A DNA stretch of 64,000 bases. It comes from Saccostrea cucullata (taxonomy: Eukaryota). The translations under genes and the position numbers were made by a program. Shown here in pieces: positions 13,670 through 16,310 of the stretch. Positions within the stretch are counted from its first letter, which is position 1; the number at the start of each line of letters is the position of its first letter. The notes beneath the pieces are model-generated. The model did not search any database. It saw nothing but the letters and a program-made list of their open reading frames with translations, and was not told where the DNA came from. Location: NCBI RefSeq assembly GCF_032062105.1, contig NW_026927899.1, forward strand, positions 186,001 to 250,000. The letters run 5' to 3'.

Positions 13670-14779
13670 ATGGGTCCAAAAAGAAAACCACCACCAACTT
13701 CGCAACAAGATGGGTCAAAACGGACAAAGCAGAATTCAAATAAACGGCAAAAGCAATCATCAATCTCTGTGGACAATCAATTAACCATGGGTCCTCTGAA
13801 CATTGACTATGACTTATTAGCTGAGGCCATTTTAAAGAAACAACAAGTTTCAACTGTCACACAACCCACCCAAAACGTCAATACGACTCAGGAAACGCCA
13901 TCAATTGAGGATACTGGGACAAATATGAACACAATTATCCAGCCCAGGGTAGAAACCCAAACGGATGCAACAAGCTCACAGACATCTACCATAACTGAAG
14001 CTCCATCCACAAGTCAAAACTACAGCAACCACTTCTCATCTCTATTACACGAATTATTTGCAGGTGAGTTGGGGGCAAACAATAATGCAAATGCTAGTAC
14101 AAATCCGCCATTATCTATAGATGAGGGTATTCCTCTAGGTGCAAACACCCCACACAGAATCAAGCAAAAAATTTGGTCTGATCAATTTTTTGATCTCCGA
14201 TCCTTACTTCCCAATTACAAAGAAAGCACTGTCTCCATTCAAATTGATCAAAGTTCTCTTAGTTTCTCAAATCAATCTGCTTCTAAATCTACCAACTCTC
14301 TGTCAATAGAACAGTGGACTACTGCATTTCACATTTTCATGGCCATTTATATTGAAAAGAAACCTGAAGATGCCCCACATTTATTGAAATATGCTTCAGT
14401 GATTAGAGAAATCGCAACCACGAATGGTGATGCAGCATGGCGTCATTATGACGAATCATTCAGAAAACTCCGCCAATCGCATACTTTGCCCTGGCAAAGA
14501 ACCATTTCTGAACTCATGGTTTCAGCATGCACCATTCATCGTTCGAAACAGCTTTTTCGGAACAATTTTCGTACCAAATTCAATGACAAATACCCCAAAG
14601 TGTGTTTCAACTTCAACAATGGCACCAAATGCAGATCAAACCCCTGCACCTATAAACATGCCTGTCAATCCTGTGGAGACTCAAATCACCCAAGAATTAA
14701 ATGCTCAAAAAACCAAACCAATTCAAAGTACCCAAAGCAAAATTCCAACGCCAATAAACGTGCCGAATCTAACTTGTGA
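13670..14779 (+). CDS. gag: Gag-like ORF1 (369 aa)
   Basis: Low-complexity N-terminus, helical core (KQKIWSDQFFDLRSLL...AWRHYDESFR) and C-terminal Cys/His fingers CFNFNNGTKCRSNPCTYKHACQSCGDSNHPRIKC; position typical of DIRS/Ngaro ORF1. Confidence 0.85.
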   Translation: MGPKRKPPPTSQQDGSKRTKQNSNKRQKQSSISVDNQLTMGPLNIDYDLLAEAILKKQQVSTVTQPTQNVNTTQETPSIEDTGTNMNTIIQPRVETQTDATSSQTSTITEAPSTSQNYSNHFSSLLHELFAGELGANNNANASTNPPLSIDEGIPLGANTPHRIKQKIWSDQFFDLRSLLPNYKESTVSIQIDQSSLSFSNQSASKSTNSLSIEQWTTAFHIFMAIYIEKKPEDAPHLLKYASVIREIATTNGDAAWRHYDESFRKLRQSHTLPWQRTISELMVSACTIHRSKQLFRNNFRTKFNDKYPKVCFNFNNGTKCRSNPCTYKHACQSCGDSNHPRIKCSKNQTNSKYPKQNSNANKRAESNL

Positions 14780-16310
14780 GTTACAAGGTTATGATCACAA
14801 CCTCTCGGATTATTTGGTAAATGGTTTTCAGTTTGGATTTAAATTAGGATGTGTAGGAGAGCCAATCCATTGTGTACATAAAAATCACAATTCTGTTTTC
14901 AAAAACCCAGACGTAGTGCAAGAAAAATTAAACAAAGAATTTGCATTAGGTCGTATCTCTGAAGCTCACAAACAAATACCATTTGAGAACTATGTTTGCT
15001 CCCCATTAGGTTTAGTCCCTAAAAAAGCACCAGGAGAATTTCGCATAATCCATGATTTGTCTTTTCCGAAGAATCAATCAGTCAATTCTTATATTCCAAA
15101 ATGCAATTCTCAAGTTCAATATGAATCAATTGAACATGTCATTCAATTAATCAAACAATTTGGCCCTTATTCATTAATGGCAAAAATGGATATTGAGGAC
15201 GGCTTTAGGAACATTCCCATTCATCCTTCTGATTATCACTTGTTAGGTTTTAGTTGGAATGGGGATTATTTCTTTGACAAATGCCTACCAATGGGAGCCA
15301 GTAGTTCTTGCCAAATTTTTGAAAAATTAAGTACAGCCCTTCATTGGATAATGATCCATAAATACAATGCTTCGGGTATGTCCCACTTAATCGATGATTT
15401 CTTTTTCATTGCTCCCCCCAATTCAGAAAAATGCTTGCAAGATGTACTTAATTTTGAAAAATTGTGCAAGAGTATTGGTATACCAATCAAACAATCAAAA
15501 ACCGTTTTCCCTACAACAACATTGACAATTTATGGAATCGAGGTTGACTCTGTTAAGATGGAAAGCAGACTTCCATCTGACAAATTAGATAAACTCAAAG
15601 CTGCTCTTGCATTTACAAGCAAAAGAAAGAAAATTTCACTTCGAGATTTACAATCTCTCATTGGATTGTTAAATTTTGCTTGTTCAGTCGTGGTTCCTGG
15701 TCGTGCATTTCTTAGACGTCTTATAGACCTTACTTGCAATGTAGACAACCCAAATCATTATATCAGGCTGAATTCAGAAGCGAGGAGTGATATCAAAGCT
15801 TGGCAAGATTTTATTGTGGAGTTCAATGGCAAGTCAATTTTTCTCCAAGAGGAATGGACAGCGTCATACAAACTTAACCTGTTTACTGACGCTTCTGGCT
15901 CTTTAGGGTACGCAGCTGTTTTAGGTTCACAATGGTTTGCAGCCTCTTGGCTGGAAGAACACAAATCATACCAAATAGCAATTAAAGAACTATTTCCAAT
16001 TGTCCTCTCTTTGGAATTGTGGGGTCAAAAACTGAGAAACCATAAAATACTATTTTTTTCTGACAATATGGCTGTGGTTGAAATTATTAACAAACAATCG
16101 AGCAAAGATAAAACCCTCATGAGATTAGTGCGCCGTCTTGTGCTTGCGGGACTTCATTTTAATGTTCTTTTCAGAGCTAAACACATTCCTGGAAAATCAA
16201 ATGTTGTTGCTGACCACTTGTCACGTTTTAAATTTCAGGAAGCCAAAGCAATAGCCCCATGGTTAAATCCTCAACCAACACCTCTCCCGTCACAGATGGT
16301 GTTCATTTAA
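14424..16310 (+). CDS. Reverse transcriptase-RNase H (true start uncertain)
   Basis: RT motifs FRIIHDLS, KMDIEDGFRNIP, CLPMGASSS, HLIDDF, YGIEVDS; RNase H motifs FTDASG, IKELFPI, SDNMAVV, NVVADHLSR. Overlaps gag in the +1 frame. Confidence 0.95.
   Translation: MVMQHGVIMTNHSENSANRILCPGKEPFLNSWFQHAPFIVRNSFFGTIFVPNSMTNTPKCVSTSTMAPNADQTPAPINMPVNPVETQITQELNAQKTKPIQSTQSKIPTPINVPNLTCELQGYDHNLSDYLVNGFQFGFKLGCVGEPIHCVHKNHNSVFKNPDVVQEKLNKEFALGRISEAHKQIPFENYVCSPLGLVPKKAPGEFRIIHDLSFPKNQSVNSYIPKCNSQVQYESIEHVIQLIKQFGPYSLMAKMDIEDGFRNIPIHPSDYHLLGFSWNGDYFFDKCLPMGASSSCQIFEKLSTALHWIMIHKYNASGMSHLIDDFFFIAPPNSEKCLQDVLNFEKLCKSIGIPIKQSKTVFPTTTLTIYGIEVDSVKMESRLPSDKLDKLKAALAFTSKRKKISLRDLQSLIGLLNFACSVVVPGRAFLRRLIDLTCNVDNPNHYIRLNSEARSDIKAWQDFIVEFNGKSIFLQEEWTASYKLNLFTDASGSLGYAAVLGSQWFAASWLEEHKSYQIAIKELFPIVLSLELWGQKLRNHKILFFSDNMAVVEIINKQSSKDKTLMRLVRRLVLAGLHFNVLFRAKHIPGKSNVVADHLSRFKFQEAKAIAPWLNPQPTPLPSQMVFI

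Follow-up and report, generated by a model that had tools for sequence, protein, structure and literature searches.

The closest described systems to the element reported here are the Xenopus Ngaros DIRS-53_XT and DIRS-54_XT (PMC9210276) and the Cafeteria Ngaros (PMC8547959). As set out in the available text of those papers, these retrotransposons carry split direct repeats in the order A1-[ORFs]-B1 A2 B2, overlapping open reading frames (ORFs) for gag, reverse transcriptase/RNase H (RT/RNase H), and tyrosine recombinase (YR) in that order, no methyltransferase, and an SGNH hydrolase ORF, and all of these features recur at the present locus. In the amphibian Ngaro, the hydrolase ORF is placed after YR and is presented as an optional feature of the superfamily (available text of PMC9210276), whereas here it lies upstream of gag and within an intron. 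In the DIRS order, the YR ORF is called overlapping or frameshifted, and the accessible accounts leave open how this mostly start-less ORF is expressed. Published Ngaros have YR as a separate overlapping ORF, with no mention of splicing in the portions available, whereas at the present locus YR is the last exon of an mRNA that fuses the N-terminal part of Gag to the recombinase, here called Gag(N)-YR.

The locus lies in a 64,000-nucleotide stretch of the Saccostrea cucullata genome (NCBI RefSeq assembly GCF_032062105.1, contig NW_026927899.1, positions 186,001 to 250,000, forward strand), which is referred to throughout as the window and is numbered from its first letter. An intact Ngaro-like YR retrotransposon spans positions 11443-18702. 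A first-pass annotation, made from the letters of the window, had proposed that a splice removes RT and joins the Gag N terminus in frame to YR. That core idea, in which RT/RNase H is bypassed to give a spliced Gag(N)-YR, is supported by RNA reads, public gene models, and conserved signals. No description of a Gag-YR splice was found in the Ngaro/DIRS literature among the matches listed, and earlier remarks based on expressed sequence tags are possible in the founding Ngaro papers.

Results

Splicing of gag to YR

Four of the 24 listed sequencing runs (X1, X2, X23, and X24) were aligned on positions 11300-18370, which cover this element only, and a joint was listed if it was carried by three reads from two starts or by one contig. 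RNA joined position 14063 to position 16239 with GT..AG ends in seven reads from seven starts in X23, the shorter arm of the junction reaching as many as 74 letters. The same join appeared in X1 and X2 as loose contig ends at 14064 and 16236, and its support is therefore made up of the X23 reads and the contig ends of two further runs, from three studies in total. X24, which was of shallow depth, contained no 14063/16239 read. The join defines intron 2 (14064-16238; plus strand, as for every feature of the element), 2175 nucleotides (nt) long, which spans the Gag core, the Gag Cys/His clusters, and almost the whole of RT/RNase H. Its phase-1 donor, CAG|GTGAGT (14061-14069), reads Ala-Gly-Glu in the Gag frame, and its acceptor, TTTAAATTTCAG|G (16218-16238), is overprinted on the RNase H tail L-S-R-F-K-F-Q and is conserved in related families. 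The exon that ends at the donor (13662-14063) encodes Gag residues 1 to 131, is bounded by RNA joints at both ends with raised read depth between them, and is common to the Gag and Gag(N)-YR mRNAs.

Read depth in the interior of intron 2 was 0.14 of the YR depth in the raw reads of X23, and for that reason most YR-bearing RNA in that sample appears to be spliced. The corresponding ratios in contigs, which are a poor measure of depth, were 0.32 and 0.25. No intron-less DNA copy was found in the assembly: three of three genomic matches to the donor region continued into the intron, and the 2 of 18 matches that reached the YR exon ran unbroken through the acceptor. Junction reads with GT..AG ends and the lack of an intron-less copy, judged on this assembly only, identify intron 2 as a GT-AG spliceosomal intron. 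Ten of the 11 listed RNA variants in YR were synonymous. A separate joint between 12298 and 16976, present in one X2 contig, had TG..GC ends and 21 letters on its short side and was discarded as a likely artifact.

The RNA confirmed the donor and the in-frame fusion of the first-pass annotation and moved its acceptor. The donor sequence was as proposed, with an exon end at 14063 in phase 1 after 131 Gag codons counted from the ATG at 13670. The acceptor had been placed at 16295/16296, where CCTCTCCCGTCACAG|AT (16281-16295) is indeed present in phase 1 of the YR frame and where a join would leave an open frame of 437 amino acids. In the RNA, the acceptor lay 57 nt upstream, which shortens the intron from the proposed 2232 nt and changes the junction peptide from D-GVHLT to HELFA-G-SQSNSPM. 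No 14063^16296 joint was listed above threshold, and minor use of that site is possible. When 29 related families were compared (see below), the donor, the phase, and the 16239-type acceptor were kept and the 16296 site was not: 8 of 29 families had an in-phase YAG within R+20 to R+26, in codons after the Arg of the RNase H-tail LSR motif, and only 2 of 29 had it at the codon used in the window. Site 16296 was rejected as the main acceptor, as it had no RNA joint, was unconserved, and gave a 437-residue product that did not match the public protein model P0001. The earlier argument that the intron is a multiple of 3 carries no weight in itself, as what counts is that donor and acceptor share a phase. 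Moreover, there are 17 GT sites in phase 1 within gag and three phase-1 AG sites in the opening 108 nt of the YR frame, and with so many available the presence of an in-phase pair is weak evidence by itself.

The fusion protein

The 14063/16239 join creates an open frame of 456 amino acids, Gag(1-131)-YR, which is identical letter for letter to P0001 (XP_062614099.1, Saccostrea cucullata). The joined frame was also contiguous in two Logan contigs, P0242 (1440 nt, this family) and P0023 (2433 nt, another family). Among the best 120 YR homologues, 19 were at least 400 amino acids long; 12 of these 19 matched a Gag N-part profile at an E value below 1e-7, and none matched the Gag core below 0.1. 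Seven of the 12 were close to families that had trained the profile, and the other five came from Crassostrea virginica (two), Ostrea edulis, Mizuhopecten yessoensis, and one ENA contig. When proteins were paired with elements, the best GT-AG join was the phase-1 donor with the acceptor four codons after the LSR motif (LSR+4) in eight of eight close pairings and the expected join in two of six distant, cross-species pairings. XP_062614099.1, XP_021342874.1 (M. yessoensis), and XP_055998375.1 (O. edulis) thus already contain the fused protein, under the label "uncharacterized protein," and other models are labeled "integrase/recombinase xerD homolog"; neither label gives a sign of an origin as a Gag-YR retrotransposon product.

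The YR exon (16239-17215; Pfam PF00589, E value 1e-06) encodes a linker of about 25 residues, a core-binding domain, and a catalytic domain. The catalytic residues R302, K339, H414, R417, W440, and Y448 (fusion numbering) were conserved in the 19 proteins. AlphaFold2, run with the 19 natural fusions, predicted residues 157 to 448 with confidence and returned the Gag part as disordered except for helices at 47-60 and 119-131. The best Foldseek match of the predicted model was Cre (E value 6.8e-12). The R-K-H-x-x-R-(H/W)-Y residues and the predicted Cre-like two-domain fold are those of a tyrosine recombinase. An ESM Atlas search with residues 1 to 135 gave no usable look-alike. In each of the 18 scorable families, 5 to 10 of the first 30 residues were Lys/Arg, and the basic stretch was followed by an [IV][DN]YxxLAxx[IMV] motif in 13 of the 18. 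The YR frame itself lacked a conserved Met; only 4 of the 29 families, that of the window included, had their first Met ahead of the initial YR helix.

Conservation of the splice signals

Sixty related loci were picked by hand from 150 matches, with long open frames favored, and the 44 of 61 loci (window included) that had at least 480 open RT codons formed 29 families that were 42 to 79% identical in RT. An in-phase AG acceptor was present in the RNase H tail (LSR-x-Q or LSR-x-x-x-Q) in 29 of 29 families, and likewise in 35 of 35 groups from a metagenome scan, which yielded 80 loci, 69 of them with an RNase H tail. Each metagenome group was scored by its commonest pattern. A clade of 17 oyster families (support, 100/99) had CAG four codons after the Arg of LSR in 17 of 17 cases and no AG-ending codon at R+2, where Gln, when present, was CAA in eight of eight. 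In the other 12 families, the R+2 codon always ended in AG (10 CAG; 1 TAG, in a decayed copy; and 1 AAG, with CAG at +4). The acceptor thus sits at LSR+4 in one clade and at LSR+2 elsewhere, a shift of 6 nt with the phase kept. The metagenome groups had CAG at +2 (25/35) or only at +4 (10/35).

Codon choice around the acceptor was skewed. The Arg of LSR was CGN in 29 of 29 families, against 205 of 441 Arg codons in the rest of RT and 15 to 86% in ten other conserved Arg columns, and the background use of CAG for Gln was 149 of 354. The metagenome groups agreed, with CGN in 35 of 35 and a background of 59 of 98. An AG-free zone ahead of a 3' splice site would impose both CGN for Arg and CAA for Gln.

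At the donor, Gly-Glu was encoded as GGT GAG in all 13 families that have Gly-Glu there (13 members of the 17-family clade), and elsewhere Gly-Glu was so encoded in 3 of 26 cases. The best donor 8 to 45 codons before the Gag core was in phase 1 in 26 of 27 families, two with a broken gag being excluded, compared with 5 to 9 of 26 to 27 in four control windows of the oyster set. Of the 22 metagenome groups that could be scored, 20 had a best donor in phase 1, with controls at 5 to 8 of 20 to 22. In position, the donor was 14 to 37 codons ahead of the Gag core and not near the ATG. Family L040 (G000:C5365) had lost the usual G|GTGAG donor (GGG GAC), and in its gene model, P0029, a weaker donor takes over, likewise in phase 1 and 13 codons farther downstream. 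We conclude that two introns (the first is described below) are removed in the RNA of this element, that the joined frame is open, and that donor, acceptor, and phase are conserved. Because the same signals are kept in distant relatives, this splice is likely how the whole group makes its recombinase.

Element architecture

The element begins with repeat A1 (11443-11706), which pairs with A2 (18056-18276) at 217 of 264 identical columns with 43 gap columns, the differences being indels and two substitutions. Repeat B1 (17707-18030) is 98.5% identical to B2 (18378-18702), which forms the 3' end. All four repeats were delimited by self-comparison of the window, and the A1 ... B1 A2 B2 layout was present both here and in many of the fetched relatives. 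Short unique spacers separate B1, A2, and B2 (18031-18055 and 18277-18377), the second of which had a variant form in RNA from other individuals. The assembly carries one near-identical copy of the element, and the next-best copy is 84% alike and broken.

Between the repeats lie four open frames. The hydrolase ORF (11899-12507) is followed by a Gag-like ORF of 369 amino acids (13670-14779), an RT/RNase H ORF of 635 codons from stop to stop in the +1 frame relative to gag (14403-16310; PF00078, E value 8.1e-11; PF17917, E value 1.9e-4), and the YR frame (16232-17215). The order gag, RT/RNase H, and YR, with overlaps, matches the Ngaro-like layout. The Gag-like ORF had no Pfam match and is named by its position only; it consists of a basic N terminus, an IDYxxLAxxI helix, a low-complexity linker, a conserved core, and C-terminal Cys/His clusters. 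The RT/RNase H frame of the window stops 28 codons past the LSR motif, and this end fell 28 to 41 codons past LSR in 28 of 29 families, the remaining family having a stop at +2. No Pfam match to a methyltransferase domain was found after RNase H in the window element. With repeats that are direct rather than inverted and with no such domain, the element differs from DIRS1-like elements, whose terminal repeats are inverted and which also have an internal complementary region and a methyltransferase. Its split direct repeats resemble those of PAT-like elements, from which it differs in the absence of the methyltransferase (definition in the available text of PMC7192593). Under the Ngaro definition of PMC9210276 and PMC7192593, in the text available of each, the element fits Ngaro by layout and predicted domains, the RT tree covering elements of this genome only.

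The SGNH/GDSL hydrolase ORF (PF00657, E value 2.8e-07) is wholly contained in intron 1 (11806-13661; 1856 nt; AAG|GTGCGT ... TTTTTCAG|) and is removed with it. The intron 1 joint was found in X23 (two reads from one start), X24 (two reads from two starts), and one X2 contig, and its acceptor lies 8 nt before the gag ATG. A recognizable MP/MG start was present in 18 families, and all 18 had a YAG 2 to 9 nt ahead of the gag ATG, with 11 families unscorable and no shuffle control. Abascal et al. inferred a similar acceptor for the DIRS1 gag captured into TMPO and ZNF451 (PMC4495291, in the text available). A hydrolase-type start motif was present upstream in 22 of 29 families (far upstream in L048), and Pfam backed the hydrolase identity in six of seven cases tested. 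One contig began at 11692, close to where A1 ends, although a contig end is no proof of a transcript start.

Splicing was considered as a route to RT and rejected: there was no RNA junction, and the region in which the Gag and RT frames overlap (14403-14779) holds neither a conserved Met nor an in-phase acceptor ahead of the RT start motif. One of 120 RT homologues carried the Gag N-part, and that one carried the whole of Gag. Translation of a Gag-Pol by +1 frameshifting from Gag is our default guess for RT expression, to which we give roughly even odds.

Elsewhere in the window, two related coding stretches, 28162-29460 (minus strand) and 59975-61398 (plus strand), are 74% identical and lie on opposite strands. 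Tandem or satellite-like arrays occupy 7674-10036, 6052-6666, 31366-34333, 42950-44033, and 45350-45764, and a repeat about 200 nt long is dispersed at 2076, 10140, 24360, 37140, 49240, and 49650.

Discussion

We conclude, with a probability of roughly 0.85, that the splice from the gag donor to the acceptor in the RNase H tail gives an open 456-codon Gag(1-131)-YR that is likely the working integrase of the element, and that its Gag part is predicted to supply a start codon and probably a nuclear localization signal. We infer that one transcript gives rise to three kinds of RNA. Its start is likely to lie close to where A1 ends. Unspliced RNA would serve as genomic template and as hydrolase mRNA, RNA without intron 1 would be translated into Gag, and perhaps into Gag-Pol through the +1 frameshift, and RNA without both introns would give Gag(N)-YR, in which YR would replace the Gag core, the Cys/His clusters, and RT/RNase H. 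Without the core and the clusters, the fusion would therefore not be expected to package RNA itself. The first-pass annotation had suggested nuclear import or particle targeting as the purpose of the fusion, and the conserved basic N terminus and conserved helix fit that suggestion. Of the two parts, we consider it somewhat probable that YR is brought into the nucleus by the first 30 residues, which are basic. We hold more tentatively that the IDYxxLAxxI helix, common to the fusion and full-length Gag, may oligomerize the fusion or co-assemble it with Gag, such that it meets the cDNA.

The alternative that fares best accepts the splice and denies the Gag exon any role beyond providing a start codon and setting the RT-to-YR ratio, with the 131 residues as a passive, disordered leader. 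Most of residues 1 to 152 were of low confidence and nonhelical in the predicted model, and the Gag N-terminal region varies widely in both length and sequence. The position of the donor argues otherwise, as a much earlier donor would suffice for a start codon, and a site 14 to 37 codons before the Gag core means that the basic patch and the helix are always included. We regard a passive leader as unlikely, though less so than the alternatives that follow.

Alternatively, functional YR might be made by Pol frameshifting or internal initiation, with the spliced RNA being a by-product or a damper on RT. The RT and YR frames do overlap by about 25 codons, the YR ORF has been termed "frameshifted" and overlapping (PMC3783388, in the text available), and the window copy has an in-frame ATG at 16259 from which a shorter YR could be made. 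Set against this, YR-bearing RNA appears to be mainly spliced, the phase is matched at both ends across families as diverged as 42 to 79% identity in RT, L040 has a compensating donor of the same phase, and the YR frame has no conserved Met. Production of YR by such a route is improbable. Least credible by far is that the joined form is an intron-less DNA copy or an alignment or template-switch artifact, for although the RNA reads have no DNA run alongside, four letters fit either side of the joint, and other individuals could carry copies missing from the assembly, the GT..AG ends, the seven distinct read starts, the long short-side matches, the lack of such a copy in the assembly, and codon constraint on the same sites in dozens of families all speak against it.

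Several points count against Gag(N)-YR as the working integrase, in addition to the ATG at 16259. The raw junction reads come from a single run (seven reads), X1 is only presumed to be RNA, and the RNA runs lack a matched DNA run of the same animals. Evidence in related families consists of gene models, two contigs, and codon signals rather than raw reads; the NCBI models are predictions, that of P0001 probably from the same assembly, and are not independent; and the expected join was missed in four of the six distant cross-species pairings, with near-tied scores. Of the 17 families in the clade of the window, 4 do not have the Gly-Glu donor: one has a broken gag, one has a shifted donor, and two have only weak phase-1 sites. 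The families are kin, and their counts are not independent events. The donor search range was chosen after the oyster data had been viewed, which leaves the metagenome set as the clean test. The Gag exon is shared, and its features could be kept for full-length Gag alone. Finally, the evidence for Gag(N)-YR is at the level of RNA and sequence.

More broadly, it is possible, if speculative, that animal Ngaros follow a retrovirus-like splicing program in which the integrase is always Gag(N)-YR. The overprinted acceptor might then explain part of the conservation of the RNase H tail, and the N-terminal exon might act as an address tag for import and co-assembly with Gag that could also set the integration site. 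Gag has been suggested to steer Ngaro integration sites (available text of PMC8547959), and a recombinase that carries part of Gag offers a concrete route by which it might do so. The question of how YR is expressed is answered directly, with reads, at the locus in the window. The rule can be checked in any genome, namely, a phase-1 donor before the Gag core and an acceptor at LSR+2 or LSR+4. The protein to be studied is redefined as well, as the bare YR ORF misses 131 residues, and a set of bivalve host gene models called "uncharacterized" or "xerD homolog" is explained as retrotransposon products.

The YR described here shares with Cre, XerC/D, and lambda Int the core-binding and catalytic fold and the R-K-H-R-W-Y residues. 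Lambda-type integrases have extra N-terminal arm-binding domains. Unlike in Cre, XerC/D, and lambda Int, the N-terminal extension of the present YR comes from a Gag exon by splicing. Drosophila copia and the foamy viruses also splice their own RNA in a regulated way and thereby set the kinds and ratio of their proteins: splicing yields Gag in copia and, in foamy viruses, a Pol made independently of Gag (PMC2194720, in the text available). Unlike either, the splice at this locus drops RT together with the Gag core, and it joins the N terminus of Gag to the integrating enzyme.

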